From Antedon mediterranea (Eukaryota; Animalia; Echinodermata): a DNA stretch of 64,000 nt. The position numbers and the translations under genes were made by a program. Of this stretch, positions 2,497 through 36,471 are shown piece after piece (position 1 is the stretch's first letter; each line of letters starts with the position of its first letter). Below the pieces are notes generated by a model that did no database searches, was not told the origin of the DNA, and saw only the letters and a program-made list of their open reading frames with translations. The DNA lies in the NCBI RefSeq assembly GCF_964355755.1, contig NC_092676.1, positions 1,989,788 to 2,053,787 on the forward strand. Reading direction: 5' to 3'.

Positions 2497-3320
2497 TATT
2501 AAAGTCTAGAAAAACTATTGCACCTGGCTGATTGTTATTTTCTGTATATGACAATACATCTTCTACTAACCTAATATTCTCTCCTCCAAATCTCCCTTTG
2601 ACATAACCTTTCTGATCATATCCAATTATAGATCAAATTACAATTTGCATTCTATTGGAGAGAACATGAGCCATTACTACATCTACATTCATTAGTCTTA
2701 TAGGCCTCCAGTTTTCTAGTTTTTCTCTTTGTCCGCCTTAAAACAGTTGATTTATAATACCTAGTCTTTGTGAGCCGCCTAATCTTTTGCTAATATAGCA
2801 GTGATTCAAATCGTCACATAACATATCTTTAATATCAACCCAAAAATGTCTATAAAATTCAACACTCAAACCATCCGAACCTGGACTTTTGTTGAGTTTC
2901 ATTTTTTCTATAGCATTTGTAAGTTCTTCTACTGATATTAATCCTTCACATTTCACAGAGTTGTCATAAGAAAGTGTATTTATTTTAGTGTTTCTTACAT
3001 ACTTATTTATCCTACCCTGTGGAATTGTTTTACATGCATACAACTTTTCATAAAAGCTTACTTGTTCTTTTAATATTTCATCTTCATTTGATGTTTATTT
3101 TCCATTATTTTTTAATAGTTTTGTAATATGTTTCCTTTTTGGGTTTTTTTTTTCTAATCCTAGGAAAAATTTATAATTTTTTTCTCCTTTCTCAAACCAT
3201 TCAATCCTAGATCGAATTGTGGCGCCTTGCGCTTCTATTAGATATATATTTTCCAAGTCGTTTGATTTGCTTTTTAATGTGCTTTCTATCTTTATGTCAT
3301 ATGTATTGTCTAATTTAAAT
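2497..3320 (-). mobile_element. Degraded L1/Tx1-clade non-LTR retrotransposon ORF2 internal fragment
   Basis: ORFs 3095-3370 and 2738-3043 plus downstream frames give AQGATIRSRIEWFEKGEKN..FFLGLEK, EELTNAIEKMKLNKSPGSDGLSVEFY, ENWRPIRLMN, DQKGYVKGRFGGENIRLV and GAIVFLDF, typical of L1/Tx1 RT N-terminal motifs. It carries stops and frameshifts and is joined directly to the 3' end of receptor R1. Confidence 0.9.
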
Positions 3321-4613
3321 GTAAGTCTGTCTGTTCTCATTTCTTGCATTTTGTAACCTCTTCTTTTCAATCACAGTGTCAGAGCTGACATACAACTGCT
3401 CAGCTTGTTCTGCTGTTCTGTCATCAACTGAACAGTAAACCTCATTTTCTGCATTAATTTGCTGAACATCAGAAGTATCACCAACATTAATGGTATCATT
3501 ATTACTTTGATAGTGCACAACAGGTACAGGTGTGTTGTGATGTTGCTTCTTTTGTTGTTCATAATAACACACTACACATACCAGTAAAACTATCAATATA
3601 ATAATATTTGTTACCAGTATTATGGTTGTTGTATTAGGTTTCTGAGACTGTGTAGACATGTTGTCATTGGAGGTTTTGTCTTGATAGTTCCCTTGATATG
3701 TTGTCAGTCTGTGTGTTGGCAAGATGCCATCTTTGATTGTAAAAGCTATCTCATCAGATCTGTTCTGAACATCATTACTCACCAGACACTTAACAGTGTA
3801 GTCACCAGCTGGTAAATTAGTAAAGCATCTTTCATCAGTTTCATTGTAATACTGATACTGAGATTCCTCTCCATTCAAACTCCAATTATAAATTCTCTTG
3901 TCATCAGATCCACCTACTACATAGCACTTGAAGCAATTCTGGTTCACATCAACTTCAGGTGTTTCATATAACCTCTTAACCTCCACCATTAATTGAGGGT
4001 GAACCTGCAATATCAATGTGTAGCATCTAATAGTAATATGCATAGGATTTGTACGCTCTATTGAAACACAGTAGAAAAACATTCCCTGTCCAGAATGAAA
4101 ACCTTTTAAAGTCTGATTAACTCTAGTGTTGTCAGTATTTAGATTATGAAACTGTGTGATTTTGTGCTTTCCTTGGATCCATCCAATTGTGACATTGTAC
4201 TGGTTGGTTTCATATTTCTTGATCATGTCACATGAAATATTTACTTCTTGCCCTTCAATGATGTCTTTGATATCATCACAATAAAGTTTTACCAAGTTTG
4301 GTTTACGTTTACTCCATCTTACATCATCTGATGAGCGTTGCAAATACTGTAAATTATAATCATCTTGACATGCATATATTCCTTTTTGAGGCTCAAAAGA
4401 AATGAAAAGTGGACATTTTGTGGTGAATTCCTTTCCAATTAAACTAGTAACTGTGTCATTTTTACTTGATGGTGTAATCGTCACAAATGTCTTGAAGTCT
4501 GATTTGTAATAAAACATACTTTCAAATAGTACCAACTCTTTTGAAGTTCCATGTCTGAATATCAACAAGCAGGTCACCATTACAAAGATGATATTAAAGA
4601 ATTTCAAAGCCAT
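3315..4613 (-). CDS. Receptor R1: Ig-superfamily-like type-I membrane protein (432 aa); tail cut by the L1 fragment after 1 Tyr repeat
   Basis: Signal peptide MALKFFNIIFVMVTCLLIFRHG; Ig-like motifs VNISC..IGWIQG..FFYC and CFKC..YNWSL..GDYTVKC; TM IILVTNIIILIVLLVCVVCYY; tail EVYCSV plus LYVSSDTV; single uninterrupted ORF. Confidence 0.85.
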   Translation of the reverse strand: MALKFFNIIFVMVTCLLIFRHGTSKELVLFESMFYYKSDFKTFVTITPSSKNDTVTSLIGKEFTTKCPLFISFEPQKGIYACQDDYNLQYLQRSSDDVRWSKRKPNLVKLYCDDIKDIIEGQEVNISCDMIKKYETNQYNVTIGWIQGKHKITQFHNLNTDNTRVNQTLKGFHSGQGMFFYCVSIERTNPMHITIRCYTLILQVHPQLMVEVKRLYETPEVDVNQNCFKCYVVGGSDDKRIYNWSLNGEESQYQYYNETDERCFTNLPAGDYTVKCLVSNDVQNRSDEIAFTIKDGILPTHRLTTYQGNYQDKTSNDNMSTQSQKPNTTTIILVTNIIILIVLLVCVVCYYEQQKKQHHNTPVPVVHYQSNNDTINVGDTSDVQQINAENEVYCSVDDRTAEQAEQLYVSSDTVIEKKRLQNARNENRQTYI

Positions 4614-4619
4614 CTTTAA

Positions 4620-5330
4620 AACCTCTGTCTTGATGCAGTTTATAAATAACCAACTTCTAAAGTCCAGACGTCGTCAGAGACGGAGTGTGTGTGTATTATA
4701 GTTTACGATATTCCAACAAGGAAGAATATACTTGGGGATATTTTGTAAAAGTTTTTTACAGGAAGTCTTTAAAAGAAAGTTTAAAGATAGAATATGATTT
4801 TTGCTACTTATATTGAAACTATAAAATTTGTACATTTTGTGCAATGAAAAATTGAACAAAAACAGCTTACTGGTACTGTACTGTACCTATTAATACTAGA
4901 AATGCGTCATCCCACCACCACAAACACAAATTAACCCCCGCTTTTAGCAACCACCTACTTTAATTTGATTATCAATATGCCTACTGAGTGTTTGGGTTTT
5001 AATAATGGTATATTAAGTAATTTAAGGAAGTACATTATAGAGATATTATAGGTTTCGCATTACAATATTTAAAACTAATTTGTTTAGATTGAATCCTGTA
5101 CGGAATTTTTAACGTTTGTATTGCATTATGTGAACTTATTGCTTTCCTTCTTGTTATATGATCTTGATTTAATGTTGTTTGTAGATTTTAACAATTTAGA
5201 AAAAAAAAGCAAAATACAAGTTTTCTGATATTCTGTTGCTAAATTATATTTATTTGTACATTTGAAGCAAAAAGTAACTTTGCTGTTCTTTACATCACAG
5301 CATGCAACTATAATAGTTTTGTTGTTGTTG
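4620..5330 (-). promoter_or_regulatory. Conserved upstream block of the receptor genes (putative promoter/5'UTR), representative copy
   Basis: A clearly homologous 600-700 bp non-coding block lies 5' of R1, R2 (8250-9050), R4 (15280-15960), R5 (17410-18060), R6 (23890-24620), R8 (29390-30110) and R10 (split by an LTR). It includes ACAGGAAGT at 4758-4766 and ACCACA at 4917-4922. Function is inferred from position only. Confidence 0.5.
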
Positions 5331-6756: not shown

Positions 6757-8247
6757 CTAATTTGGTGTTTCGTAATATTTATGCTCACCACTCTTTTTTC
6801 TTGCATTTTGTAACTTCTTGTTTTCCATCACAGTGTCAGAACTAACATAGTCAGTCTGTTCTGCTGTCTCTCCGTTCTCATTTCTTGCATTTTGTAACCT
6901 CTTGTTTTCAATCACAGTGTCAGAGCTAACATAATCAGTCTGTTCTGATGTCTCTCTGTTCTCTTTTCTTGCATTTTGTAACCTCTTCTTTTCAATCACA
7001 GTGTCTGAGCTAACATAGTCAGTCTGTTCTGCTGTCTGTCTGTTCTCATTTCTTGCATTTTGTAACCTCTTGTTTTCAATCACAGTGTCAGAGTTAACAT
7101 AGAACTGCTCAGCTTGTTCTGCTGTTTTGTCATCAACTGAACAGTAAACCTCGTCTCCTGCATTCATTTGCAGAACATCAGATGTATCATCGACACCAAT
7201 TATGTCATTGTTTCTTTGAAAGTGCACAACTGGTACAGGTGTGTTGTGATGTTTTCTCTTTTGTTGTTTATAATAACACACAACAAACACAAGTACAGCT
7301 ATCAATACGATGTTACTTGTTATCAGTATTATGGCTGAGGTTTTGTCTTGATAGTTCCCTTGATATGTTGTCATTCTGTCTGTTGGCAAGATGACATCTT
7401 TAATTGTGAATGTTAACTCATCAGATCTGTTCTGAACATCAGTACTCACCAGACACTTAACAGTGTAGTAACCAGCTGGTAAATTACTAAAGCATCTTTC
7501 ATCAGTTTTATTGTAATAATGATACTGAGATTCCTCTCCTCTCAAACTCCAGTTATAAATTGTTGTGTCGTGAGGTTTACCTTCTGCATAGCACTTGAAG
7601 CAATTCTGGTTCACATCGACTTCAGGTGTCTCATATAACCTTTTGACTTCTATCATTAATTTATGGTGAACAGTCAATGTCAATGTGTAGCAATTATTGA
7701 TATACCTAATTGAAGTACAGTAGACAAATATTCCCTCTCCAGAATGAAAACCTTCAAAAGTCTGAGTCACTGTAGTATTCTCAGTATCTGCATTATGATA
7801 CTGTGTAATGTGGCGCTTTCCTTGGATCCAACTTATTGTAACATTTGTTTTGATGTAATATTCGTTGATGATGTCACATGAAATGTTTACTTTTTCTCCT
7901 TCAATTATTGCTTTTATATTGTCACAATAAAGTTTTACATACCATGGTTGACTTATAAAACTTGTTACATTTGAAGAAGGAACCAAATAATATTGTAAAT
8001 CATCTTGACACATATGTATTCCATTTTTGGGATCAAAAGAAATGAATAGTTGGCAGTTGACATTTTTTCCAGTCAAATGAAAGGCTCTGTACTGTTTACT
8101 TGATGGTGTAATTGTCACTAGTTGCTTAGTGTATGATTTGTAATAAAACCTACTTTCAAATTGTACTAACTCCCTAGATGCTCCTCGTCTGAATATCAAT
8201 AACCATGTCACCATTACAAAGATGATATTAAGAAATTTCAAATTCAT
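6757..8247 (-). CDS. Receptor R2: intact Ig-like type-I membrane receptor (496 aa), 4 Tyr repeats, ends HKYYETPN
   Basis: Complete ORF with signal peptide, Ig-like domains, TM (AIILITSNIVLIAVLVFVVCYY), DEVYCSV, 4 x YV(N/S)SDTV repeats and a terminal YYETPN. Confidence 0.9.
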   Translation of the reverse strand: MNLKFLNIIFVMVTWLLIFRRGASRELVQFESRFYYKSYTKQLVTITPSSKQYRAFHLTGKNVNCQLFISFDPKNGIHMCQDDLQYYLVPSSNVTSFISQPWYVKLYCDNIKAIIEGEKVNISCDIINEYYIKTNVTISWIQGKRHITQYHNADTENTTVTQTFEGFHSGEGIFVYCTSIRYINNCYTLTLTVHHKLMIEVKRLYETPEVDVNQNCFKCYAEGKPHDTTIYNWSLRGEESQYHYYNKTDERCFSNLPAGYYTVKCLVSTDVQNRSDELTFTIKDVILPTDRMTTYQGNYQDKTSAIILITSNIVLIAVLVFVVCYYKQQKRKHHNTPVPVVHFQRNNDIIGVDDTSDVLQMNAGDEVYCSVDDKTAEQAEQFYVNSDTVIENKRLQNARNENRQTAEQTDYVSSDTVIEKKRLQNARKENRETSEQTDYVSSDTVIENKRLQNARNENGETAEQTDYVSSDTVMENKKLQNARKKSGEHKYYETPN

Positions 8248-9049: not shown

Positions 9050-9340
9050 TACATTTTCATCACGTTCTGCTCTATTTGCATAGTAAGCCTCCTCTATCAC
9101 ATTTGTCTGTAGAACATCAGATGAATTCTCACCCACACTTGCACCACTGTTTCTTTGCTAGTACACAGCAGGTTGTGGTGTTGTCACGTTTATTCTTACA
9201 TTACAGCTCCACTACCCAATTTGATGCTACAATTGTTAAAGACAGTGGAAGGTATTTTGAATTGTACAAGATGTCTTGAAGCTCCTCTATGTCTGAATAT
9301 CAACAAGCAGATCACAAATAGATTAAAGGATTTCATCATT
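9050..9340 (-). pseudogene. Internally deleted receptor remnant (signal peptide joined to cytoplasmic relic)
   Basis: The reverse strand reads MMKSFNLFVICLLIFRHRGASRHLVQF and then jumps to degenerate juxtamembrane/tail-like sequence. A homologous remnant lies at about 30110-30590. Confidence 0.65.
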
Positions 9341-10050: not shown

Positions 10051-12048
10051 TCAATCAGTGTCAGAGTTACCATAGTCAGTCTGTTCTGATGTCTCTCTGT
10101 TCTCATTGCTTGCATTTTGTAATCTCTTCTTTTCAATCACAGTGTCAGAGTTACCATAGTCAGTCTGTTCTGATGTCTCTCTGTTCTCATTTCTTGCATT
10201 TTGTAACCTCTTGTTTTCCATCACAGTGTCTGAGCTAACATAGTCAGTCTGTTCTGCTGTCTCTCTGTCCTCATTTCTTGCATTTTGTAACCTCTTCTTT
10301 TCAATTACAGTGTCTGAGCTAACATAATAGTCAGTCTGTTCTGCTGTCTCTCTGTTCTCATTTCTTGCATTTTGTAACCTCTTGTTTTCCATCACAGTGT
10401 CTGAGCTAACATAGTCAGTCTGTTCTGCTGTCTCTCTGTTCTCATTTCTTGCATTTTGTACCCTCTTCTTTTCAATCACAGTGTCAGAGCTAACATAGTC
10501 AGTCTGTTCTGATGTGTCTCTGTTCTCAATTCTTGCATTTTGTAACACCTTCTTTTCAATCACAGTGTCCGAGGTAACATAGTCAGTCTGTTCTGGTGTC
10601 TCTATGTCCTCATTTCTTGCATTTTGTAATCTCTTGTTTTCAATCACAGTGTCTGAGTTACCATAGTCAGTCTGTTCTGTTGTCTCTCTGTTCTCATTTC
10701 TTGCATTTTGTAGCCTCTTCTTTTCAATCAAAGTGTCAGAGCTAATATAGTCAGTCTGTTCTGCTGTCTCTCTGTTCTCATTTCTTGTGTTTTGTACAGT
10801 CTTTTCTTCAATCACAGTGTCAGAGCTAACATAAAATGCATTTTCAGCTTCTTCTGCTATATTATCATCAATCGTAAAGTAAATTTCTTCCTCTGCAATG
10901 GTTTGTGGTGTGTAAGAAATGTCATGCACACTAATTGTGTCATTGTTTCTTTGGTAGTTTACAACAGGTACAGGTGTGTTGTGATGTTTCTTATTCTGTT
11001 GTTCATAACAACACACAACACAAACTAGTAAAACTATTAGTATGGTGTTACTTGTTACCAGTATTATGGTTATTTTATTGGGCTTCTGATTTGTATTTGT
11101 AGCTATTGGCATGTTATCATTGGAGGTTATGTATTGGTTGTTGCCTTGGAGTGTTGTCATTCTCTCTGTTGCCATGACATCTTGAATTGTGAATGCTATC
11201 TCATCAGATCTGTTTTGAACATCAGTACTCACCAGACACTTAACAGTGTAGTTACCAGCTGGTAAATTACTAAAGCATCTTTCATCAGTTTCATTGTAAT
11301 ATTGATTCTTGAATTCCTCTCCTAGGCCTTTCAAACTCCAATTATAAATTGTTTGGTCACCAGATCCACCTTCTGCATAGCACTTGAAGCAATTCTTGTT
11401 CACATCAACTTCAGGTGTTGTATATAACCTCTTAACCTCTACCTTTAATTTAGGGTGAACCAGCAATATCAATGTGTAGCACCTTATGCTCCTATTGGGT
11501 GAGTAATAATATAAAATACAGTGGACAAATATTCCTTCTCCAGAATAAAAACCTTTAAAAGTCAGATTTATTGTAATGTCTGAATCTTCACTATGAAACT
11601 GTGTAATGTTGTGTTTTCCTTGGATCCAACCAATTGTTACTTCATATTGGTTAATGTTATATTTTCTGATGTCACATGAAATGTTTACTTCTTCTCCTTC
11701 AATGATGTCTTTTATATCTTCACAATCAGCTCTTACAAAGTCTGGTTGAGCTCTTCTCCATTGTATATCATCCGATGAAGGAAGCAAATATTGTAAATTA
11801 TCATCATCGTAACATGTGTATATTCCTTTTTGTTGTTGACCAAAGGAAATAAGAAGTGGGCATTTAATTGTGACGTCTCTTCCGTACAAATTATCCAAGT
11901 CCTGTAAACTTGATGGTGTAATTATCACAGGTAGCTCAGTGTATGATAGATAATAAAACTCTCTTTGAAATTGTACAAGATATCTTGAAGCTCCATGTCT
12001 GAATATCAATAAACAAGTCACCAAAAGATTAAGCAATTTTAAATTCAT
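10051..12048 (-). CDS. Receptor R3: intact Ig-like type-I membrane receptor (665 aa), 9 full plus 1 partial Tyr repeats
   Basis: Complete ORF; TM ITIILVTSNTILIVLLVCVVCCY; EEEIYFTI; repeat variants TDYVSS, TDYGNS, TDYISS, TDYVTS and TDYYVSS. Confidence 0.9.
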   Translation of the reverse strand: MNLKLLNLLVTCLLIFRHGASRYLVQFQREFYYLSYTELPVIITPSSLQDLDNLYGRDVTIKCPLLISFGQQQKGIYTCYDDDNLQYLLPSSDDIQWRRAQPDFVRADCEDIKDIIEGEEVNISCDIRKYNINQYEVTIGWIQGKHNITQFHSEDSDITINLTFKGFYSGEGIFVHCILYYYSPNRSIRCYTLILLVHPKLKVEVKRLYTTPEVDVNKNCFKCYAEGGSGDQTIYNWSLKGLGEEFKNQYYNETDERCFSNLPAGNYTVKCLVSTDVQNRSDEIAFTIQDVMATERMTTLQGNNQYITSNDNMPIATNTNQKPNKITIILVTSNTILIVLLVCVVCCYEQQNKKHHNTPVPVVNYQRNNDTISVHDISYTPQTIAEEEIYFTIDDNIAEEAENAFYVSSDTVIEEKTVQNTRNENRETAEQTDYISSDTLIEKKRLQNARNENRETTEQTDYGNSDTVIENKRLQNARNEDIETPEQTDYVTSDTVIEKKVLQNARIENRDTSEQTDYVSSDTVIEKKRVQNARNENRETAEQTDYVSSDTVMENKRLQNARNENRETAEQTDYYVSSDTVIEKKRLQNARNEDRETAEQTDYVSSDTVMENKRLQNARNENRETSEQTDYGNSDTVIEKKRLQNASNENRETSEQTDYGNSDTD

Positions 12049-13892: not shown

Positions 13893-15272
13893 TTATTTAT
13901 GACATCCTCTATCATCATTTCTTGCATTTTGTAATCTCTTCTTTTCAATCACAGTGTCAGAGCTAACATACAACTGTTCAGCTCGTTCTGCTGTCTCTCT
14001 GTTATCAATTCTTGCATTTTGTAACCTCTTCTTTTCAATCACAGTGTCAGAGCTAACATAGAACTGTTCAGCTTGTTCTGCTGTCTGTCTGTTCTCATTT
14101 CTTGCATTTTGTAACTTCTTGTTTTCAATCACAATGTCCGAGTTAACATACAACTGTTCAGCTTGTTCTGCTGTTTTGTCATCAACTGAACAGGGAACCT
14201 CGTCTTCTTCATTTATTTGCAGAACATCAGATGTGTTTCCCGCACTAATTGTGTCAGCGCTTCTTTGAAAGTGCACAACTGGTGCTGGTGTGTTGTGATG
14301 TTTTCTCTTTTGTTGTTCATAAAAACACACAACACACACAAGTACAGCTATCCATATGATGTTACTTGTTACCAGTAGTATTTTTATTTTAGGCTTCTTG
14401 GTATTAGTATCTTGAATTGTGAATGCTATCTCATTAGATCTGTTCTGAACATCAGTACTCACCAGACACTTCACAGTGTAGTCACCAGCTGGTAAATTAC
14501 TAAAGCATCTTTCATCTGTCTCTAGCTGGTCATCATTCTCTGTCAATTCTTCCTTATTCAAACTCCAATTATACATTTTCTTGTCATCAGATCCACCTTC
14601 TGCATAGCACTTAAAGCAATGCTGGTTCACATCAATTTGAGGTGTTTCAGAGTATAACCTTTTAACATCCACCTTTAATTGAAGGTGAACTGTCAATATC
14701 AATGTGTAGCAGTAAATATTTCTATTTTTTAAAATGCAGTAGAAAAATACCCCTTCTCCAGAATGAAAACCTTTTAAAGTCTGATTAATTGTAACAGTGT
14801 CAGTATTTGTATGAAGAGTCTGTGTAATGTTGTGCTTTCTTTGGATCCAACCAATTGTCACTTTATAATTGATGTTACGATTTCTGTTCATGTTACATGA
14901 AATATTTAATTCCTCTCCTTTAATGATGTCTTTCATATTGTCACAGTAAAGTTTTACAAGTTTTGGTTGAACTGCAAACCATACCTGTACATTGGACGTC
15001 GGATTCAAATATTGTAATCTATCCTTTTGACATGTGTATATTCCTGTTTTGTTACCAAAAGAAATAAAAAGTGAACATTTAACTGCAACATCTTTTCCAC
15101 CCACATGAACTATGTTCTGTTTACTTGACGATATAATTCTCACATTTATTTTGGAGTTTGATGAGTAATAAAATCTTCTTTCAAATTTCACCAACTTTTT
15201 TGACGCTCCATGTCTGAATATCAACAACCAGGTCACAAGTACAATAATGATATTAAGGAATTTCAAATTCAT
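13893..15272 (-). CDS. Receptor R4: intact Ig-like type-I membrane receptor (459 aa), short stalk, 3 Tyr repeats with 30-aa spacing
   Basis: Complete ORF; short stalk IQDTNTKKPK; proximal Tyr replaced (DEVPCSV); 90-bp repeat period (cttgcatttt at 13921, 14011, 14101). Confidence 0.9.
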   Translation of the reverse strand: MNLKFLNIIIVLVTWLLIFRHGASKKLVKFERRFYYSSNSKINVRIISSSKQNIVHVGGKDVAVKCSLFISFGNKTGIYTCQKDRLQYLNPTSNVQVWFAVQPKLVKLYCDNMKDIIKGEELNISCNMNRNRNINYKVTIGWIQRKHNITQTLHTNTDTVTINQTLKGFHSGEGVFFYCILKNRNIYCYTLILTVHLQLKVDVKRLYSETPQIDVNQHCFKCYAEGGSDDKKMYNWSLNKEELTENDDQLETDERCFSNLPAGDYTVKCLVSTDVQNRSNEIAFTIQDTNTKKPKIKILLVTSNIIWIAVLVCVVCFYEQQKRKHHNTPAPVVHFQRSADTISAGNTSDVLQINEEDEVPCSVDDKTAEQAEQLYVNSDIVIENKKLQNARNENRQTAEQAEQFYVSSDTVIEKKRLQNARIDNRETAERAEQLYVSSDTVIEKKRLQNARNDDRGCHK

Positions 15273-16247
15273 CTTTAGAACTTCTCTGTCTTGATGCAGT
15301 TTATAATAACCAACTCCAAGTCCAAATGTGGTAAGAGACTGAATGTGTTTGTAATAGTGTATACCAACAAGGAAGAATATACTTCAAGGGTTTGTTAAAG
15401 GTTTTTAACAGGAAGTCTTTAAAGGAAAGTTTATGCCAAGAAGATAGAATATGATTTTTGCTACTATAAAATTTGTGCATTTTGTGAAATGAAAAATTTA
15501 CAGCTTTACAACAGCTTTACCTAATAATACTAGATGTGTCATCCCACAAACACAAAATAATCCGTCTTTTAGCAACCACCTACTTTAATTTGATTATCAA
15601 TATGCCTACTGATTGTTTGTGTTTTAATAATAGTACATTCGGTAATTTAAGGAAGTACGTTATTGGATATTATAAGCTCTCCCATTACAATATTTAAAAC
15701 TAAATTGTTTAGATTGAATGCTATACGGATATTTTAACGTGTTTTTTTTTCATTATGTGAACTTGTTGGTTTCCTTCTTGTTATATGATCTTGATTTAAT
15801 CATGTTGTTTGTAGATTTAAACAATTGAAAAAAAAAAACAAAATACAAGTTTTCAATATTATTCTGTTGCTAAATTTTATTTATTTGTACAAGACTATTT
15901 GCAAGCTTTTTACATTTGAAGCATAAGTAACATTTAAGTTTTTTTACATCACAGCATGGACATATAACATTATGTATTTTCATCATGTTCTGCTGTGTCA
16001 TTAATTTCATAGTAAACCTCCTCTTCCGCATTTGTCTGTAGAACATCACATGAATTCTCACCCACATTGGCACCACTGTTTCTTTGATAGTACACAGCAG
16101 GTTCCCCTCTGAATGAGAACGTATTTATTCTATCTATTTTTCCTGTGGAATGTTACAATCACAGTGTCAGAGCTAACATAGTCTCTCTGTTCTCATTTCT
16201 TTAATCCTCTTCTTTTCAATGACAGTGTCTAACATAGGTTAATTTAA

Positions 16248-17402: not shown

Positions 17403-18289
17403 CTTTAGAACTTCTCTGTCTTGATGCAGTTTATAATAACCAACTCCAAGTCCAAATGTGGTAAGAGACTGAATGTGTTTGTAATAGTTTACTATACCAA
17501 CAAGGAAGAATATACTTCAAGGGTTTGTTAAAGGTTTTTTACAGGAAGTCTTTAAAGGGAAGTTTATGCCAAGAAGATAGAATATGATTTTTGCTGCTAA
17601 TATTCAAACTATAAAATTTGTGCATTTTGTGAAATAAAAAATTAAACAAAAACAGCTTACTGATAACTGTACCTACAGTTAATACTAGAAATGCGTCATC
17701 CCATCACCACAAACACAAAATAACCCAGTCTTTCAGCAACCGCCTACTTTAATGTGATTATCAATATGCATAACTGATTGTTTGTGTTTTAATAATAGTA
17801 CATTAAGTACATTATAGAGATATTATAGGTTTCGCATTACAATATTTAAAACTAAATTGTTCAGATTGAATCCTGTACGGAAGTTTTAACATTTTTTATT
17901 GCATTATGTGAACTTGTTGCTTTTCTTCTTCTTATACAGTATGATCTTGATTTGTAAATTTAAACAATTGAGAAAAGTTTTCAATTTTCTTTTGCTAAAT
18001 GTTATTTGCAAGCTTTTTATACATTTGAAGCATAACGTAACATTTATGTTTTTTACTAATACCTACTTTAATTTGAAGACAAATAATATTTTCCAACTAC
18101 AAGATACAGTACATCATTATTGTTTTTGTTATATTATTAGTACATTAGGTACTGTATGTCTTGCTTGGTATATAAGGGTGTTGGTTTCTGTGTTTGTTAG
18201 ATTATATTGATTTGATCATGTTGTAGATTCAATTCGCAAACAATCAAACAAACTAATCTGGCGTTTCATAATATATGCTCACCACCCAC

Positions 18290-22740: not shown

Positions 22741-22779
22741 GCATTGCATCAAATGGGAGCCTACTGTACAGTTATTCTA

Positions 22780-22955
22780 TTGAATTGAATTGAAATATAT
22801 ATTTATACTGGGTAACCTCTTCAGTCAAAGACTGGTCTCCCAGGGGGCTCAGTTGGTGATCAGTGGCTGTGATGTACTAATACACCGGGGTAACCCCCCA
22901 CTCGTCTCGAAAGATGTACTAGGTTCTTTAAAGTACACACGAGCTAGATGTGTAT
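22780..22955 (-). mobile_element. SINE 3' fragment (same family as 63195-63480)
   Basis: Shares ctcttcagtcaaagactg..gatcagtggctgtgatgta..ctcgtctcgaaagat and a (GAATT)n tail with the copy at 63195-63480. Confidence 0.75.
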
Positions 22956-24619
22956 TCTATTAACGGGTGTAGCACATTAAAATTGAGAGGATAAGATGGA
23001 CATCATAATTTATTATTAAGGGGAAAAACAGCAAATCCTTACTGAGGGGACACTCCTATAAAGCGGACATTAAGGGGACGGGGAACATTTAAGCTCAGTG
23101 CCAATGTTCACTCAATATATTTTCCATCACAAAATAACAAAAAAGACGAAATATTTATATCCATTTATCGTTATTAAATAAAAATGGATATCATGATAAT
23201 TATGATACTTTGTTTGTCTTGAAAGTTTTCATTGGTGAAACGTTGCCTGCTACATTTTGAATTTCCGAGTCCAGATCAGTATTGGTATTGGTTTTCCGTG
23301 ATCTATTCTAACTAATGAAACAATTTTTAGAAAATGATATATCTGATAGATATCATCTAAGTGATGTTTTACATATAAGTTATAACGTTTAACTTTTCAT
23401 TCTCCATACATTCAATTCTTTTAATATAGTTCTTGTATAACACCATATCAAGTAGTAGTAGAAATTGTTGAATTGAAGGGTTTTCTTATTATTCAGTCAA
23501 TTCAGTGTTTCTATACAGAAAAGAGTAGTCAGTGGCCTTAACATCAATTAATTGTATAATTTGCACCCAAGGTCGAATAGCAAGAAACTCAGGTCCAGTT
23601 ACATTGGTGTTCATTGGTCAATAGGAAATGAACAGCACACTTATGGGTGGTGACAAAGTTTAGTTATTGATAAGTTGTCCTTGGGAAAAACACATTAGTT
23701 GGGTTGACCATGGGCTGACAGAGTTAACGACTTCGTAACGCTATCCGGGGCTCCTGCGCCTAATGGTAATAAAACCTACTTTCAAATTGTACCAACTGTC
23801 GTGATGCTACTCCATGTCTGAATATCAACATCCAGGTCACCATTGGGCCTACAAAGATGATATTAAGGAATTTCAAAGCCATCTTTAACCTATTGATACA
23901 GTTTATAAATAACCAACTAAATAACCAGACGTCGTCAGAGACTGAGTTTGTAATAGTGTACAATACTAAGAAGGAAGAATATACTTAGGGAATTTTACAG
24001 GAAGTCTTTAAAGGAAAGTTTATGTCAAGAAGATACAGTAGAATATGATTTTTGCTGTTAATATTCAAACTGTAAAATGTGTGCATTTTGTGAAATGAAA
24101 AGTTAAACAAAAACAGCTTACTGGTATTAACTGTACCTACAGTTAATACTAGAAATGTGTAATCCCACCACCAGAAATACAAAATAACCCTGTCGTTTAG
24201 CAACCACCTACTTTAACTTGATTGTCAAGATGGTTCATAAAATGTTTGTGTTATATTATTTATAGTACATTAAGTACAGTAATTTAAGGAAGTACATTAT
24301 AGAGATATTATAGGTTTCTCATTACAATATTTAAAACTAAATTGTTTAGATTGAATCCTGTACGGAAGTTTAAAATTTTTTTTTTTTTGCATTATGTGAA
24401 CTTGTTGCTTTCCTTCTTGTTATATAATCTTGATTTAATCATGTTGTTTGTATATTTAAACAATTGAAAAAAAAAAATACAGGTTTTCAATATTCTGTTG
24501 CTAAATTATATTTATTTGTACAAGACAATTTGCAGGCTTTATACATTTGAAGCATAAAGTAACATTTGTGTTTTTTACATCACAGCATGGACATATAACA
24601 TCTATGTTAATTTGTCGTT

Positions 24620-24960
24620 AATTGCATAGTAAACCTCCTCTTCTGCATTTGTCTGTAGAACATCAGATGAATTCTCACCCACACTTGCATCCCTGTTTCT
24701 TTGATAGTACACAGCAGGTTGTGATGTGTGTTTGTGCAATCATCAGTATAATATTACTTGTTAGTATTATTTGTTACTTAATTAGTATCCATGGTTGGCG
24801 TGGTATAATTGATATCTTGAGTTGTTGTCTTCATTCTTTCTGTTTTGCATTGTACCGTACCTTCAATTGTGCCTTGGAGTGTTGTCATCCTCTTTGTTGG
24901 CATGATGACATCTTTAATTTTGAATGCTGTCTCGTCATGAGGTGGTTTCTCGAAAGATTG
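24620..24960 (-). pseudogene. Receptor remnant (stalk/TM/tail relic)
   Basis: The reverse strand gives DETAFKIKDVIMPTKRMTTLQG.., then TM-like and tail-like degenerate sequence. Confidence 0.6.
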
Positions 24961-25029
24961 TAAAATCAAAAACGGTACTGGGTATCACCAACTAGCATAG
25001 CTAACATAAAAATGTTCATTTTATTCATC

Positions 25030-26223
25030 ATTCATCTGTGTGATTAACAATTGAACAGTAAATCTCATTCTTTTCAACAGTTTGCGAAACATTCAAAGTG
25101 TCACCAACACTGATTGTGTCATTGAATCATCTTTTTATACATTATGATTTACTGTATTCTATCTCTAAAAAAAAATAAAAAAATAATTATTTATAAAACA
25201 TCAGAAATTATAATGTTTTTTACTCAAATATGAATGAAAGAAATAAATGTTTATTTGAATTGAATTGAATTGTTTCTTTGATAATGCACAACTGGTACAG
25301 GTGTGTTGTGATGTTTCTACTTCTGTTGTTCATAATAACACACAACAAACTTGAGTAAAACTATCAGTATGATGTTACTTGTTACTAGTATTATGATTAT
25401 TTTATTAGTTTTTATGTTCACCATTCTGTCTGTTTGCATTGTAAACCCTATCTCATCCGATCTGTTCTGAACATCAGTACTCACCAGACACTTAACAGTG
25501 TAGATTGAAGCAATTCTGGTTCACATCAACTTTAGGTGTATCATACAACCTTTGAACCTCTACCTTTATTTGAGGCTGAACTGTTAACATCAATGTGTAG
25601 CACCAAGTGTCTAAACAATTGTTAATTTCAATTGATAAACAGTAGAAAAATATACCTTCTCCGGAATAAAAACCTTTAATAGTTTGAGTATAGCTAATAT
25701 TTCTTTCAGTATTTGAACTGTGGAACTCTGTAATGTTGTACACTCCTTGGATCCAACCACTTGTGACATTATATTTGATAAGATTCTTTCTGATAATACA
25801 TGTAATGTTTACTTCATCTCCTTCAATGATGTTTTTCAAACTTCCACAAAAGACTTTTTCATCATATTTTTCTGATTTAACTTCAGATGAAAGAAAAACA
25901 TATTGTAAATGGTCATCATCTTCACATGTATAGATTCCTTGTTTTTGTTTATCAAAAGATATAAATAATGGACATTTTATAATGAATTGTTGTGTCAAGT
26001 AATTGTTGAACATACGCTGTCCGTTCTCGCCTTTGTTAAAGTATTTACCACCCACATTAATCTGGAACTCCTTACTTGATGTTATGATTGTCACAGGTTG
26101 TTTAGAATCTGATGAGTAAAAGAAATATTAATGAGATCCATCAGGTGATTTTTAAGTTCCGTGTCTGAACATTAGCAAGCAGGTCACTATTCCAACGATG
26201 ATGTTAAGGAATTTCAAAGTCAT
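25030..26223 (-). pseudogene. Receptor R7: frameshifted, partly deleted pseudogene
   Basis: ATG at 26223; ORF 25492-26094 keeps KCPLFISF..GIYTC..VNITC..GWIQG..FFYC..CYTL. The membrane-proximal domain is deleted between NCF and YTVKC, and the tail is interrupted by an insert ending in (GAATT)n at about 25125-25272. Confidence 0.85.
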
Positions 26224-27741: not shown

Positions 27742-29382
27742 CTAATTTGGTGTTTCGTAATATTTATGCTCACCACTCTTTTTTCTTGCATTTTGTAACC
27801 TCTTGTTTTCCATCACAGTGTCTGAGCTAACATAGTCAGTCTGTTCTGCTGTCTCTCTGTCCTCATTTCTTGCATTTTGTAACCTCTTGTTTTCCATCAC
27901 AGCGTCAGAGCTAACATAGTCAGTCTGTTCTGGTGTCTCTCTGTCCTCATTTCTTGCATTTTGTAATCTCTTCTTTTCAATTACAGTGTCTGAGCTAACA
28001 TAGTCAGTCTGTTCTGCTGTCTCTCTGTTCTCATTTCTTGCGTTTTGTAGCCTCTTCTTTTCAATCACAGCATCAGAGCTAACATAGTCTGTCTGTTCTG
28101 ATGTCTCTCTGTTCTCATTTCTTGCATTTTGTAACCTCTTGTTTTCAATCACAGTGTCAGAGTTAACATACAACTTTTCAGCTTGTTCTGCTGTTTTGTC
28201 ATCAACTGAACAGTAAACCTCATTTTCTGCATTAATTTGCTGAACATCAGAAGTAATACCAACACCAATTGTGTCAATGTTTCTTTGAAAGTGCACAACT
28301 GGTACAGGTGTCTTTTGCTGTTTCCTCTTTTGGTATTCATAACAGCACACTACACACACAAGTAAAACTATCAATATAATAATATTTGTTACCAATATTA
28401 TGGTTGTTGTATTAGGTCTCCGAGACTGTGTAGGCATGTCGTCATTGGAGGTTTTGTCTTGATAGTTGGCTTGATATGTTGTCAGTCTGTCTGTTGAAAA
28501 GATGCTATCTTTGAGTGTAAATGCTATCTCATCAGATTTGTTCTGAACATCAGTACTCACCAGACACTTAACAGTGTAGTTACCAGCTGGTAAATTACTA
28601 AAGCATCTTTCATCAGTTTCATTGTAATACTGATACTGGAAGTCCTCTCCTTTCAGCATCCAATTATAAATTGTTTTGTCACCAGATCCACCTTCTGCAT
28701 AGCACTTGAAGCAATTCTGGTTCACATCAACTTCAGGTTTTTCATATAATCTTTTAACTTTTATTTTCAATTGAGTGTGAACTGTTAATATCAATGTGTG
28801 GCAGTAGATACTCACATAATGGGTATACTTGAATGACATGCATACAAAAAATAATCCTTCTCCAGAATGAAAACCTTTAAAAGTCTGATTAAATGTAGTG
28901 TTCTTGGTATCTGTTTGATGAAACTGTGTAATGTTATGCTTTCCTTGGATCCAACCAATAGTGACATCATTTTGGATGTAGCCATATTTCTTGATCATGT
29001 TGCATGAAATGTTTACTTCCTCTCCTTCAATGGCGTCTTTCATATCTTCACAATAAAGTGTTATGTATGATTGAGATAGGTCCCATGTTCTATGTACCCT
29101 CAATGAACGTCGCAAATATTGTAAATTATAATCATCTTGACATGTGTATATTCCTGTTTGGTTACCAAAAGAAATGAAAAGTGGACATTTAATTCTGAAA
29201 TCCTTTCCACTTATACGAAATACATCATATTTACTTGATGATTTGATTGTCACAGGTTGCTTAGTGTATGATTGGTAATAAAACCTTCTGTCAAATTGTA
29301 CAAACTCTCTTGAAGCTCCATGTCTAATTATCAACAACTAGGTCACAAGTACAAAGATGATATTAAGGAATTTCAAAGCCAT
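27742..29382 (-). pseudogene. Receptor R8: otherwise intact gene (5 Tyr repeats, ends HKYYETPN) with a single TGG>TAG stop in the signal peptide
   Basis: ATG at 29382 reads MALKFLNIIFVLVT then TAG (29340-29338) where R4 and R5 have TGG. The rest (ORF 27742-29337) is fully open. Confidence 0.85.
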
Positions 29383-30109: not shown

Positions 30110-30590
30110 TTTCATCATGTTCTGCTGTGTCATTAATTGTAAACCTCCTCTTCCGCATTTGCCTGTAGAACATCAGATGAATTCTCAACCACACTTGCAC
30201 CACTGTTTCTTTGATAGTACACAGCAGGTTGTGGTGTTGTCATGTTTCTTTTTACATTACAGTTCCACTACCCAATTTGATGCTACAATTGTTAAAGACA
30301 GTGGAAGGTATTTTGAGTCACATTTAAACTCGCTATCTTCTTCTTCTTCTTCTTCTTCTTCGTATTAGGAGCCAACTTCATATGTGAAGACACTGCTCCT
30401 TCAACTCTGTTTTGCTAGCTCTACTGTATTTGGTTGTGTATTATTCTATTTAGTTATTCTTTTATTATTATTATTTTTTTTTTTTTTTTTTTTTTTTTGG
30501 GGAAATTGTACAAGATGTCTTTAAGCTCCTACATGTCTGAATATCAACAAACACAGATCACCAACAGATTAAAGGATTTCAAAGTCATCT
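30110..30590 (-). pseudogene. Internally deleted receptor remnant (paralogous to 9050-9340) with a small insertion containing (TCT)n and poly-T
   Basis: Shared blocks gtagaacatcagatgaattctc..cacttgcaccactg and aaattgtacaagatgtct..tgtctgaatatcaacaa. Confidence 0.6.
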
Positions 30591-31159: not shown

Positions 31160-33094
31160 AATATAGCCTGTTCTGCTGTGTCTCAATTCTTGCATTTTGT
31201 AACCTCTTCTTTTCAATTACAGTGTCAGAGTTAACATAGTCAGTCTGTTCTCATTTCTTGCATCTTGTTTTCAATGACAGTGTCTACTGTATGCTAACAT
31301 AGGGATGTTTGGTTTATTCTGCATGATTATCAATTGAACAGTAAAGCTCATTTTTTTCAATGGTTTGCAAAACATTAGAATTGTCACCAACATTAATTGT
31401 ATCAATGCCTCTTTGATAATGCATAGCTGGTACAGCTGTGTTGCGATGTTTCCTCTTTTGTTGTTCATAACAACACACAACAAACACAAGTAAAACTATC
31501 AGTAGGCCTATGATAGTACTTGTTACAAATGTTATGGTCATTTGATTAGTTTTCTTGCTTTTTGTCGGCATGCCAAATTTGATATCTTGAAATGTTGTTA
31601 GTCTTTCTGTTACCATAACATCTTTAATTCTATCTCATCAGATCTGTTCTGAACATCAGTACTCACCAGACACTTAAAGACCCCTTCCCTGCAATTTTGG
31701 ACGTTTTTTGGAAAATAATACATATATATCACTTTAAAAACATTAAACCATGTCATTCCTTGTCTTAAATGTACGTTTTATGGTAAATTATGATAAAAAG
31801 TGAGAAACAATGCACTACCTAAGTAGCTCGCGGCGATCGACCTCTCGTGGACGGTCTTAGGCCTAGCCTAGCTAGGCTTAGTTTTGTAGGCCTAGCTGGT
31901 AAACATCGGTAACGTACGAACATCGTACGCGAGCTATATACCTAGCCTGACGTTGTATAGTTGCTGCATTAATTGTCTTTCTATTTTTGCCAGACTCCGT
32001 TACAAATTGGGGAAAACCCGGTATTTTCGCTGAAAAGTTAGGAGTCTTCCATTTGTTTTGGCCTCACGATCGATCGAAAAGTGGGCGAATTATAGGTGAA
32101 AAACAAAAATATCAATCCGCGCGCAATGCATTCTGGGATTTTTAGCGGGCCGCTATAATTATTAGAATCGGATTATTTTTCACATTTTTAACCGTTTAAA
32201 GACGAAAAAAGTTATCGCAATAGGACCATATAGTATTATTTTTACATTAAATATAGTTTGTGATCTTAAATTAGATCTAAAAAACGTAGGGAATGGGGCT
32301 TTAACAGTGTAGTTACCAGCTGGTAAATTACTAAAGCATCTTTCATCAGTTTCATTGTAATGTAATACTGATACTAAGATTCCTCTCCTTTCAAACTCCA
32401 ATTATAAATGGTTCTGTCACCGGATCCACCTTCTACATAGCACTTGAAGCAATTCTGGTTCACATCAACTTTAGGTGTATCATATAACCTTTTAACCTCT
32501 ACCTTTAATTTAGGGTGAACCAGCAATATCAATGTGTAGCACCTTATGCTCCTATTAGTTAAGTAATAATATGAAATACAGTAGATAAATATTCCTTCGC
32601 CAGAATTAAAACCTTTAAAAGTCAAATGTAATATCAGTATCTGCACTATGATACTGTGTAATGTTGTGTTTTCGTTGGATCCAACTAATTGTGATGTCAT
32701 ATGGTTGATGTTATATTTTCTGATGTCACATGAAATGTTTACTTCTTCTCCTTCAATGATGTCTTTTATATCTTCACAATCAGCTCTTACAAAGTCTGGT
32801 TGAGCTCTTCTCCATTGTACATCATCCGATGAAGGAAGCAAATATTGTAAATTATCATCATCGTAACATGTGTATATTCCTTTTTGTGGTTGACCAAAGG
32901 AAATAAGAAGTGGGCATTTAATTGTGACGTCTCTTCCATACAAATTATCAAAATCTTGATAACTTGATAGTGTAATTATCACAGGAAGATTAGTGTATGA
33001 TAGATAATAAAACTCTCCTTGAAATTGTTGTGAAGCTCTATATCTTGATATCATCAATAGACATGTCACCATGGTTTAGCAATTTTAAACTCAT
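31160..33094 (-). pseudogene. Receptor R9: frameshifted pseudogene interrupted by a TTAA-site element
   Basis: ORF pieces 32374-33072 (ectodomain nearly identical to R3) and 31314-31616 (stalk/TM/tail like R5); degenerate repeats at about 31160-31300. Confidence 0.85.
31678..32300. mobile_element. Kolobok-like non-autonomous DNA transposon
   Basis: TTAA is duplicated (31674-77 and 32301-04) where paralogs have a single cacTTAAcag. Imperfect TIRs AGACCCCTTCCCTGC / GTAGGGAATGGGGCT begin with AG, which fits Kolobok rather than piggyBac (CCC). Confidence 0.8.
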
Positions 33095-34059: not shown

Positions 34060-34835
34060 CTAATTCAATTCAATTTCTTTTTATTTCGGAAATATCATCC
34101 ATATTAATAAACGTATAAATAGAAAAAAAGAGAAATAAAAAATCGTAAACTTTAAACTTAAGTATATAGACTGCTTCTCCATCTACAATACATTTTGGAG
34201 TTATGGAGCATATTTTTGCAAACACAAGCAACAAGGATGTTACCACTATTCAACATACGTTGCATAAAACCATAGGTAGATTTTCGCATGTACTCATTAA
34301 AGGAAGGGACACCATGTTCAATAAACATTGCACTGGCACTGCTACTTCTAGAGACATTAAGTATACGGCGCAGAGCATTATTGTAACATACATTAAGAGA
34401 TCTAATATTCTTCATACGATAGTTACACCAAAGGGCTGCACAATACATATTAATACAGTAAGATCTAAAGAGACAACATTTAACATTGGTAGAGCATTTC
34501 ATAAATTTGCGATTGAGTGAGTTGCTTCTAATACATAAAGATCTGTACTGACTTTGAATGTCAGCCTCATCACTGCAATCACACATAAGAATATGACAAA
34601 CCTTTCTCAACATAAGCAAGTTTTTTACCAAAAAGTTTAGTAATAGAATTACCTTCAAGTTTGCATGTACGAGGACAGAAACACATACAAAAAGATTTCT
34701 TATCATTAAATAAAACATCATTCTCTTGCGAAAACTCTTCACAAACATGTACCAATTGATGGAGACCAGACAATCATCCGCATAACTAAGATGATTCAAG
34801 ATAATGTTTCTACATTGGCAACCCTGGCACAAACC
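34060..34835 (-). mobile_element. Non-LTR retrotransposon 3' fragment (RT YADD to C-terminus; clade uncertain, RTE-X or L2-like)
   Basis: ILNHLSYADD, LFRSYC..MYCAALW, YNNALRRIL..SASAMF; (GAATT)n tail at about 34062. Confidence 0.85.
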
Positions 34836-35307
34836 ACTTATTACTAATATAAAAACATCAAACAATATCAGATTTATGCAGAACATAAAACACATTCATT
34901 ACAAATTACATGAATTACCTACATTCTGTGAAAAAGTTAGCACGCATACAGTATTCTTCATGTTAACCATTTCAGATTTATTTATTTTCCAGTATATCAC
35001 TTGCTGTTTCCTATATGGCTATACATTTATATATTATTACATATTTTTGTTTTCTAATTGGTGTTATTAATAATTCTCTCTGAATGAGAACTTACTGATA
35101 TTTTATTCATATCTATTTTTCCTCTGGAATGTTACCTATTAGCCTATTATTTTGGTTATTTAATTCTGTACAAATGTCTAATCCTTTACATTGCTTGGTA
35201 TATAAGGGTGTTGGTTTCTGTTGTGTTAGATGATATTGATTTGATCATGTTGTAGATTCAATTCGCAAGCAAACAAACAAACCAATCTGGCGTTTCATAA
35301 TATATGC

Positions 35308-36471
35308 TCACCACCCACTCTTTTTTCTTGCATTTTGTAACCTCTTCTTTTCAATCACAGTGTCCGAACTAACATACAACTTTTCTGCTGTTCTGTCATC
35401 AACTGAACAGTGAACCTCATCTTCTGCATTCATTTGCAGAACATCATTTGTGTCTCCCACACTAATTGTGTCAATGTTTCTTTGAAAGTGCACAGCTGGT
35501 GTGTTGGGATGTTTCCTTTTTTGTTGTTCATAATAACACACAACACACACAAGTACAGCTATCCATATGATGTTACTTGTTACCATTAGTATTATTATTT
35601 TAGACTTCTTGTTTTTAGTATCTTGAATTGTGAATGTTATCTCATCAGATCTGTTCTGAACATCAGTACTCACCAGACACTTCACAGTGTAGTCACCAGC
35701 TGGTAAATTACCAAAGCATCTTTCATCAGTTTCATTGTAATTCTTGAATTCCTCACCATTCAAACTCCAATTAATTGTTTTATCAACAGATCTACCTTCT
35801 GCATAACATTTGAAGCAATTCTGGTTAACATCACCTTCAGGTGTTTCATACAACATCTTTACCTCTACAATTAATTGAGGGTAAACTGGCAATATCAATG
35901 TGTAACAATAAATATCTTTATCGGTATCCATTATTAAAATACAGTGAAAAAATATGCCTTCTCCAGAATGAAAACCTTTTAATAAAGTCTGATAAATTGC
36001 AATGTCAGTATCTAGATGATGAAACTGTGTAATGTTGTGTTGTCCTTGGATCCAACCAATTGTCACTTCATATTGGATTTTGTCATTTTTCCTTATGTCA
36101 CATGACATGTGTACTCCCTCTCCTTCAATGATGTCTTTCTTAATATTGTCACAGTAAAGGTTTACATGCGATGGTTGATATCTGCTCTGTATAACATCTG
36201 ATGAAGGTACCACATAGTGTGAATTATCATCATCTTGACATGTGTATATTCCATGTTGGTTACCAAAAGAAATGAAAAGTGGACATTTCATTTTGAAATC
36301 TTTTCCCCCCACACTATATGTGTAATTTTTACTTGATTGTGTCATTATCACAGATTGTCGTGTTTGCAGGTAGTAAAACCTGCTGTCAAATTGTACCAAC
36401 TCTTTTGATGCTCCATGTTTGAGTAACAACAACCAGGTCACAATTATAAACGTGATATTAAGAAGTTGCAT
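35308..36471 (-). CDS. Receptor R10: intact Ig-like type-I membrane receptor (about 387 aa), short stalk, 1 Tyr repeat, ends KKSGW
   Basis: The start at 36471 (MQLLNITFIIVTWLLLLKHG) is chosen by homology to paralogs; an in-frame ATG also exists at 36501. Ig-like domains, TM and DEVHCSV are present. Confidence 0.88.
   Translation of the reverse strand: MQLLNITFIIVTWLLLLKHGASKELVQFDSRFYYLQTRQSVIMTQSSKNYTYSVGGKDFKMKCPLFISFGNQHGIYTCQDDDNSHYVVPSSDVIQSRYQPSHVNLYCDNIKKDIIEGEGVHMSCDIRKNDKIQYEVTIGWIQGQHNITQFHHLDTDIAIYQTLLKGFHSGEGIFFHCILIMDTDKDIYCYTLILPVYPQLIVEVKMLYETPEGDVNQNCFKCYAEGRSVDKTINWSLNGEEFKNYNETDERCFGNLPAGDYTVKCLVSTDVQNRSDEITFTIQDTKNKKSKIIILMVTSNIIWIAVLVCVVCYYEQQKRKHPNTPAVHFQRNIDTISVGDTNDVLQMNAEDEVHCSVDDRTAEKLYVSSDTVIEKKRLQNARKKSGW

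Follow-up and report, generated by a model that had tools for sequence, protein, structure and literature searches.

Distal ectodomains and stalk/tail modules have different histories in a tandem receptor gene array of the crinoid Antedon mediterranea

The locus described here raises the question of how neighboring receptor genes come to carry similar heads on different tails. It lies in a stretch of 64,000 nucleotides of the Antedon mediterranea genome (assembly GCF_964355755.1, contig NC_092676.1, positions 1,989,788 to 2,053,787), which was analyzed as a whole and is called the window below. Between 3.3 and 36.5 kb of the window, ten receptor genes (R1 to R10) are arranged in tandem, all on the minus strand. 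We found that the distal ectodomain and the stalk, transmembrane (TM) and tail regions of these genes have different histories. We consider it probable that this is a tandem birth-and-death array in which repeated non-allelic exchange in the proximal domain separated the histories of heads and of stalk/TM/tail modules, and that the receptors likely serve immune or self-recognition.

The encoded proteins share one layout. A signal peptide is followed by the distal region D0, the domains D1 and D2, a stalk and a single TM helix, and the tail contains 0 to 13 copies of a 28- to 30-aa repeat with one tyrosine each. Six copies are open (R1-R5 and R10), four are broken (R6, R7, R8 and R9), and four remnant copies are present in addition. 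In the open reading frame (ORF) list, each of R1-R5 and R10 is one ORF without interruption (384-665 aa) that runs from the signal peptide to the tail; splicing of untranslated regions or within the genes is possible. From their sequence, the receptors appear to be type I, single-pass membrane proteins encoded without coding introns. The genes are:

3315..4613, minus strand: R1, 432 aa, open; the stalk is long, and an insertion resembling a long interspersed nuclear element (LINE) truncates the tail behind one repeat
6757..8247, minus strand: R2, 496 aa, open; R6-like head, shortened R1-like stalk, four tail repeats, C-terminus YYETPN
10051..12048, minus strand: R3, 665 aa, open; R9-like head; EEEIYFTI motif and about nine tail repeats
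13893..15272, minus strand: R4, 459 aa, open; R5-like head; short stalk; without the YxxI/V tyrosine; three tyrosine repeats
16248..17402, minus strand: R5, 384 aa, open; R4-like head; R9-like stalk/TM; 52-aa tail ending just past EIYCSI
18279..23882, minus strand: R6, broken by an insertion that splits it and by a stop near 20327; R2-like head, R4/R10-like stalk, about 13 tail repeats
25020..26223, minus strand: R7, broken by stops, frameshifts, a D2 deletion and a 148-nt tail insertion; short-tail type
27742..29382, minus strand: R8, open except for one signal-peptide stop near 29340; R1-like stalk/TM, R2-like 3' end
31314..33094, minus strand: R9, broken by frameshifts, a stop and an insertion; R3-like head, R5-like stalk/TM, short tail
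35308..36471, minus strand: R10, open; short stalk like R4 and R6; without the YxxI/V tyrosine; one tyrosine repeat

Segment identities were taken from a DNA alignment of the ten copies. Identity between R3 and R9 reaches 95% (D0) and 93% (D1), where most other pairs have 66-79%, and drops to 69% in the stalk and 72% in the tail; R9 shares its stalk (92%) and TM (97%) with R5. R4 and R5 are alike upstream of the gene (98%) and in the signal peptide (96%), D0 (88%) and D1 (91%), and differ in D2a (73%), stalk (67%), TM (78%) and tail (76%). Both observations had been made in a preliminary description of this DNA and were reproduced by the segment identities. R2 and R6 are 88% identical in D0, 87% in D1 and 62% in the stalk, and the R6 stalk is 100% identical to that of R4 and 89% to that of R10. 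The earlier observation that R2 and R6 share an N-terminus, with an R4/R10-like stalk in R6, therefore stands, except that the FYYKSY stretch is interrupted in R6 by a 3.39-kb insertion. The heads had also been called near-identical; the likeness is real, at 87-95% in D0-D1. R1 and R8 share the long stalk (90%) and the TM (92%) as described, and R2 and R8 are 93.6% identical over 455 nt of 3' end and flank. The latter likeness had been counted as a sign of mosaicism, but it shows no exchange, because the LINE-like insertion has removed the end of the R1 tail; the triplet test for R8 gave p about 0.10.

Separate phylogenies of the segments had been proposed as a check, and they conflict. R7 was excluded from trees, dN/dS estimates and simulations because of its D2 deletion, leaving nine copies. 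The D0-D1 tree contained the pairs R3/R9, R4/R5 and R2/R6, each with 100% bootstrap support, and the 3'-half tree contained R4/R6/R10 (100), R5/R9 (100) joined by R3 (97), and R1/R8 (95); the three head pairs are carried on different tails. Approximately unbiased (AU) tests rejected the 5' trees on the 3' data (p about 0.0005, at most 0.0005; log-likelihood gap 134) and the 3' tree on the distal data (p=0.016, gap 215). The pairwise homoplasy index (PHI) test was significant with ten, nine or six copies (p=0.0005 each) and not significant when confined to the stalk-to-tail region (p=0.56). The correlation between 5' and 3' distances was -0.07. In 500 single-tree simulations with region-specific rates it was 0.68 ± 0.12 (minimum 0.21), and none of the 500 reached the observed value, showing that region-specific rates do not account for the conflict. 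Taken together, distal ectodomain and stalk/TM/tail have different histories, and the sequence comparisons support module shuffling by recombination or conversion between paralogs.

A further combination is found in an uncharacterized A. mediterranea protein (XP_071957072.1, here P0007), which is 81% identical to R4 and ends inside the conserved block of D2 described below. Its D0 is R5-like (50/56 versus 44/56 for R4) and shares the deletion of R5, and its D2a is R4-like (44/53 versus 31/51) and shares the one-residue insertion of R4. Since this combination is not present in the window, P0007, as one predicted protein, points to further exchange between both lineages.

Where the histories switch was analyzed with 14 triplet tests on a 1530-column alignment, in which D2 comprises columns 922-1200 and a 117-bp block singled out in the preliminary description comprises columns 1083-1200. 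Strong switches (p=0.0005) have support intervals of 891-912 for R5, 909-1019 for R4, 1139-1226 for R9 and 930-1203 for R6. All four fall in D2 or at its edges (columns 891-1226), and those of R9 and R6 overlap the block. Triplet tests were weak for R2 (p 0.017-0.056), and a late-tail switch of R7, which adjoins an insertion, was not used. The D2 tree is star-like. R4 and R5 share the following tract:

16832..17590, minus strand: tract common to R4 and R5, R5 side, starting near -190 and reaching the D1 end
about 14690-15460, minus strand: the same tract, R4 side

The R4 and R5 switches are probably one event, and since the tract is bounded also at its 5' end (near -190), it resembles a conversion tract, with a length of about 760 nt. 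The proximal domain D2 is likely the exchange zone.

The block within D2 has these positions:

11179..11298, minus strand: conserved block (C-terminal half of D2), R3 copy
about 3729-3848, 7396-7515, 14409-14528, 16551-16670, 19620-19739, 28507-28626 and 35620-35739, minus strand: conserved block, other copies

It had been called invariant, which is too strong, as the pairwise identity is 85-98%. Synonymous divergence (dS) in the block is 0.11 (0.05-0.20) compared to 0.32-0.46 in the other seven segments, and codons for the same amino acid mismatch at a rate of 0.065 (stalk 0.12, other segments 0.16-0.23). In the nine copies the synonymous dip at the block is significant after correction for the scan (p=0.015). 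Of the 33 pairs that have an identical run of at least 30 nt, 21 have their longest run in the block, with lengths up to 90 nt. D2a has a lower dN/dS (0.37), yet its dS is 0.40, so that protein constraint does not explain the low dS of the block. These values fit a block that has been homogenized between copies. RNA structure was considered as a cause of block conservation and discarded, with folding z-scores of -1.14 to +0.14 in all four copies folded. In R3, R8 and R9 the block contains a perfect 14-bp palindrome inside an imperfect hairpin, which was predicted in three of four copies and is no more stable than in shuffled sequences.

Low divergence is also found on both sides of the head and tail modules:

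4614..5300, minus strand: upstream non-coding zone of about 700 bp, R1 copy, common to R1, R2, R4, R5, R6 and R8
18295..19358, minus strand: array of 84-bp tail repeats (28 aa, one tyrosine each) in R6; further arrays at 6797-7102, 10056-10833 and 27782-28170
13907-14174, minus strand: 90-bp form of the tail repeat

The mean Jukes-Cantor distance is 0.12 in the upstream zone (-660..-260) and 0.10 in the block, compared to 0.35 in D0, 0.27 in D1 and 0.20 in TM plus tail; identical 54-nt repeat stretches are common to R2, R6 and R8. The upstream flank, the 117-bp block and the tail repeats thus bracket two divergent modules, the head and the stalk/TM/proximal tail. The low upstream divergence could alternatively stem from constraint on a regulatory flank. 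We propose that non-allelic gene conversion and unequal crossover repeatedly start or finish in the proximal domain. The three zones would serve as pairing anchors, kept alike by short conversions, and heads and tails would thereby travel between copies as cassettes.

Mosaics of this kind could also be assembly chimeras joined via the conserved block. Identical runs of up to 90 nt in the block would allow such joints, and the public contigs (three organisms with the region) are too short to bridge it, the longest pieces being under 1 kb. However, no copy has a flank identical to that of another on either side (at least 5/77 and at least 6/90 differences), the R4/R5 switch lies outside the block, and P0007, which comes from a public assembly, is a further R5/R4 mosaic. 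In addition, the assembly resolves 64 copies of a 32-bp unit and 12.6 copies of the 84-bp repeat without any N, which suggests a long-read assembly. Mis-assembly is therefore unlikely, and we give it hardly any weight. Some data from public runs were set aside: run X1 contains pieces identical to R8, R9 and R10 and is possibly the source sample, so it was not counted as support; contig joints between R3, R4 and R5 in run X6 have sides of only 21-50 nt and were not used; and in run X5, 8 of 30 bins of the R8-R10 stretch are uncovered at 95%, which may be haplotype variation and was not taken as evidence. Run X5, presumed to be RNA, has even coverage of intergenic DNA and is thus uninformative on expression.

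The four remnant copies precede R2, R4, R6 and R8 and had been missed in the preliminary description:

9070..9336 (wider 8816-9680), minus strand: remnant before R2, signal peptide fused to a tail fragment
16000..16103 (wider 15742-16103), minus strand: remnant before R4, tail fragment with EEEVYYEI
24615..24960 (wider 24380-24960), minus strand: remnant before R6, block end, stalk and tail fragment
30130..30588 (wider 29897-30935), minus strand: remnant before R8, signal peptide, low-complexity insert and tail fragment

As each remnant also comes after one of R3, R5, R7 and R9, the array appears to be built of higher-order units, two genes and a remnant each, in which these four short-tail-related genes alternate with long-tail genes. 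A motif of the EEEVYYxI type is retained in the remnants, whose upstream DNA resembles that of R9 at 85-90%. At the R10 block (35659) the summed depth of public contigs is far above single-copy level in all four runs; summed depth does not equal copy number, and this gives a weak hint of further paralogs outside the window.

Several results weigh against the proposed exchange in the proximal domain and its use in recognition. The synonymous dip has p=0.12 when the six open genes are tested alone. No dN/dS value is significantly above 1; that of D0 is 0.99 (0.68-1.49). The N-terminal half of D2 tracks neither flank (R4/R5 73%, R4/R10 78%), so that one clean crossover is insufficient, and testing whether duplication units extend from one block to the next gave no significant result (rho 0.15, p=0.23; rho 0.35, p=0.054), which leaves crossover and conversion indistinguishable. 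The preliminary description had taken the block itself for a crossover or conversion hotspot. Its synonymous divergence is the lowest of all segments, and two of the switches (R9 and R6) overlap it, but the other two (R5 and R4) are located 70-190 columns upstream of it, at the D1/D2 junction, and the switches represent only about three independent events; the narrow block as a hotspot is plausible but thinly supported. Four of the ten copies are broken, two of the three head pairs include a broken gene, and both partners are open only in R4/R5. Immunoreceptor tyrosine-based inhibitory or switch motifs (ITIM/ITSM; [SIVL]xYxx[IVL] and TxYxx[VI], canonical definitions as in the accessible part of PMC9546547) were found in none of the nine tails scanned. 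The role in immune or self/non-self recognition, finally, is likely by analogy with other receptor families.

Some of these points would be expected if the shuffling were a neutral by-product. The two-gene-plus-remnant unit would then have been duplicated several times, conversion would act wherever copies are similar, the breakpoints in D2 would reflect constraint, and the resulting combinations would be unselected. The alternation of short-tail-related with long-tail genes, in which every short-tail-related gene is followed by a remnant, agrees with this, as do the broken copies, the dN/dS of 0.37 in D2a and the p value of the dip in open genes. The mechanism is the same as in the explanation we prefer; the difference is that a special anchor and selection are denied. 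Constraint, however, leaves synonymous divergence unlowered (dS 0.40 in D2a versus 0.11 in the block), and divergence in the heads is roughly threefold that of the non-coding flank. We regard a purely neutral origin as unlikely.

Like the inhibitory and switch motifs, activation motifs (ITAM) were absent from all nine tails, and none of the nine hydrophobic TM spans examined contains a charged residue (K/R/D/E), the K of R4 being located at the outer border; in the broken R7, the TM does contain a K. Six of the nine tails (R1, R2, R3, R5, R8 and R9) carry an [ED][VIL]Yxx[VI] motif close to the membrane, which R4, R6 and R10 have lost. The tails of R5, R9 and R7 end a few codons past this motif, and R3 has one motif, EEEIYFTI, that resembles a half ITAM (hemITAM). 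As tyrosine motifs, the R4 tail has only the repeats and the R5 tail only EIYCSI, so that the two are complementary; R2 and R8 add YYETP. The C-terminus of R10 and R6 is KKSGW (35308-35330 and 18279-18300) in contrast to KKSGEHKYYETPN in R2 and R8, a small insertion in R10 removing the terminal YYETP. Tyrosine sites of this kind are generally substrates of Src kinases and docking sites for SH2 proteins. We predict phosphorylation of the tails by Src-family kinases, with recruitment of SH2 proteins; the YxxI/V motif and the number of tyrosine repeats would set the kind and strength of the signal, and R4 and R5 would answer similar ligands differently.

In a true paired-receptor system, R4/R5, R3/R9 and R2/R6 would be activating and inhibitory partners with a common ligand, and 5' gene conversion would maintain the likeness of their heads, as it does for Siglec-11/16. 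The R4/R5 tract, from upstream DNA to the distal domains, resembles the SIGLEC11/16 tract (PMC5701461, accessible part); the R4 and R5 tails are complementary, and the stop common to R5, R9 and R7 is old. Head likeness fits paired receptors loosely and in the distal domains only (D0-D1 R4/R5 88-91%, R3/R9 93-95%, R2/R6 87-88%). On the other side stand the missing canonical ITIM, ITSM and ITAM, the missing charged TM residue and the broken state of R6 and R9. Furthermore, the R4 and R5 heads differ at about 36-40 non-synonymous sites, which makes a common ligand uncertain. The paired-receptor reading of the preliminary description could thus not be upheld: judged by sequence, the array resembles paired receptors genetically without being a member of that class, and we think it improbable that the three pairs act in this way.

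The fold of the receptors was examined by modeling and comparison. A model of D1-D2 of R3 is all beta, with two beta-sandwiches and a mean predicted local distance difference test (pLDDT) score of 69 (D1 about 80, D2 about 60). D1 aligns with immunoglobulin (Ig)-like sandwiches in structure comparison (Z 9.8, root-mean-square deviation 2.3-3.1, 96-97 aligned residues). The D1-D2 model matches many Ig-like sandwiches at Z 8-10, among them PKD, macroglobulin, FN3, ICAM and B7-H6 domains, and no single match stands out. Feature matches in the Atlas reach 0.90-0.91 to Ig/C2-set clusters, with 143-164 features in common. Pfam matches of Ig type are all below the cut-off (E 0.014-0.085), and Y_Y_Y is above its cut-off in one of ten receptor ORFs. 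According to the model, D1-D2 has an Ig fold, the set (V, I, C1 or C2) being left unspecified. The whole-ectodomain model is poor (pLDDT 45), with D0 under 40.

A profile built from nine ectodomains matched 11 of 1.84 billion representatives at E<=0.001. Two of the matches are strong (E 9e-109 and 3e-55); these are the uncharacterized A. mediterranea proteins P0007 and P0008 (XP_071950092.1), the only clear named homologs. P0008 is 30-40% identical across the ectodomain and has an unrelated tail without repeats. A third match (P0013) is an unnamed 133-aa fragment from a 658-bp contig that aligns to D0, and the other eight match short stretches only. A word-index search with the 11-sequence alignment recovered P0007 and P0008 only, and with R2 residues 20-330 as query gave no match. 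A PDB sequence search gave one match (E 0.1), regarded as chance; a metagenome scan matched 273 stretches, of which none was confirmed; and Rfam gave no match in positions 1-40000 of the window. No Alr, FF or FcoR name appeared among the ten of the 11 profile matches that were looked up, and no direct pairwise test was made.

With the same genetics, the receptors might instead be adhesion, neural-wiring or gamete-recognition molecules, since Ig-fold ectodomains with tyrosine tails generally serve all these functions. Fast birth and death and a distal dN/dS near 1 are, as a rule, more typical of immune or self-recognition receptors, and we find these other roles doubtful.

Several insertions interrupt the array:

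20376..23765, no strand assigned: insertion of 3.39 kb in R6; its 32-bp terminal inverted repeats are perfect, and comparison with R2 gives no evidence of a target duplication
31678..32300, no strand assigned: 623-bp high-copy insertion in the conserved block of R9, with TTAA on both sides and imperfect inverted ends starting AG
2460..3320, minus strand: LINE-like reverse-transcriptase fragment truncating the R1 tail repeat, sense-oriented, without Pfam hit

The R6 element contains a satellite based on a 21-bp unit (21415-22780), and internal pieces of the element recur at 48602-48664, 49289-49357 and 63194-63323. The R9 insertion, which we take to be Kolobok-like, has a contig depth thousands-fold above its flanks in all four runs and is thus likely a very high-copy miniature inverted-repeat transposable element (MITE). 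The fragment at 2460-3320 is presumably LINE-like, judging from its motifs. High-copy repeats are also present in the spacers before R9 (33366-34895) and R3 (12963-13556); the part at 34158-34895 reads to us like the end of a LINE ORF2, without Pfam match, and 34061-34496 has an inverted copy at 54793-55186. Next to the array, an intron-rich axonemal dynein heavy chain gene (DYH2/5/8-type, AAA_6 Pfam matches) occupies 41400-64000 on the plus strand, and its region includes the 64 copies of the 32-bp unit (44642-46691, 99% identity).

Without coding introns, the breakpoints can be mapped directly in coding DNA, which makes it testable whether conserved proximal domains act as recombination anchors and whether new head-tail combinations are selected. 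R4/R5 provides a concrete test case for paired signaling without ITIM or ITAM. As a more speculative extension, to which we would give modest odds at best, the array may be an independently evolved echinoderm germline cassette system, in which the three anchors recombine old heads and tails and yield haplotype-variable pairs of the R4/R5 type with non-canonical tyrosine codes. It would then be a first candidate for crinoid allorecognition or pathogen receptors.

The closest described case, as far as the accessible parts of the cited reports go, is Botryllus FF/FcoR, likewise clustered receptors of the immunoglobulin superfamily (IgSF) in an invertebrate deuterostome with conflicting head and tail trees. 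For FF, the disagreement of ectodomain and intracellular trees was read as intergenic recombination, 'mixing and matching' (PMC12582321). The FcoR tails contain YxxI/L/V cores, hemITAMs of the form [ED][ED][ED]xYxxL and some canonical ITIMs and are encoded by multi-exon genes (PMC12582321); EEEIYFTI of R3 is one residue off this hemITAM. The FF tails lack tyrosine motifs, whereas the Antedon genes are single ORFs with an intra-domain switch and arrays of 28-aa tyrosine repeats, and no homology was found among the profile matches looked up.

In SIGLEC11/16 (PMC5701461) and the CEACAM1-related pairs (PMC2832619), a conversion tract extends, as in R4/R5, from upstream to the distal domains and is followed by a TM and tail that differ, and stretches of low synonymous divergence are likewise the evidence. 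These pairs are defined by ITIM versus ITAM or by a charged TM residue that binds DAP12; neither occurs in the Antedon tails, and the searches run found no homology. Hydractinia Alr genes are similar in being divergent single-pass IgSF genes with pseudogenes and tyrosine tails (PMC9546547), and chimeric alr2 alleles combine different ectodomains with stem/TM/tail types (bioRxiv 10.1101/2022.03.25.485889). Unlike the Antedon array, they are multi-exon and spliced, contain ITAMs and ITIMs and have a known role in allorecognition; again no homology was found among the profile matches looked up. The Biomphalaria PTC2/GRC clusters are unstable clusters of invertebrate single-pass genes as well, with an Ig-like domain in six PTC2 genes; there, parasite resistance was linked by mapping, and head-tail shuffling is not described in the accessible part of the report (PMC13712769).

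In the literature searched, which left most subscription papers outside, no publication on such a crinoid receptor family was found. The process of head-tail shuffling is already known from Botryllus FF, Siglec and CEACAM, and the Antedon family and its intra-exonic layout are apparently undescribed. Ectodomain-tail shuffling is known in paired receptors of vertebrates, in one tunicate and in one cnidarian, and the Antedon array appears to be an independent case in a crinoid.

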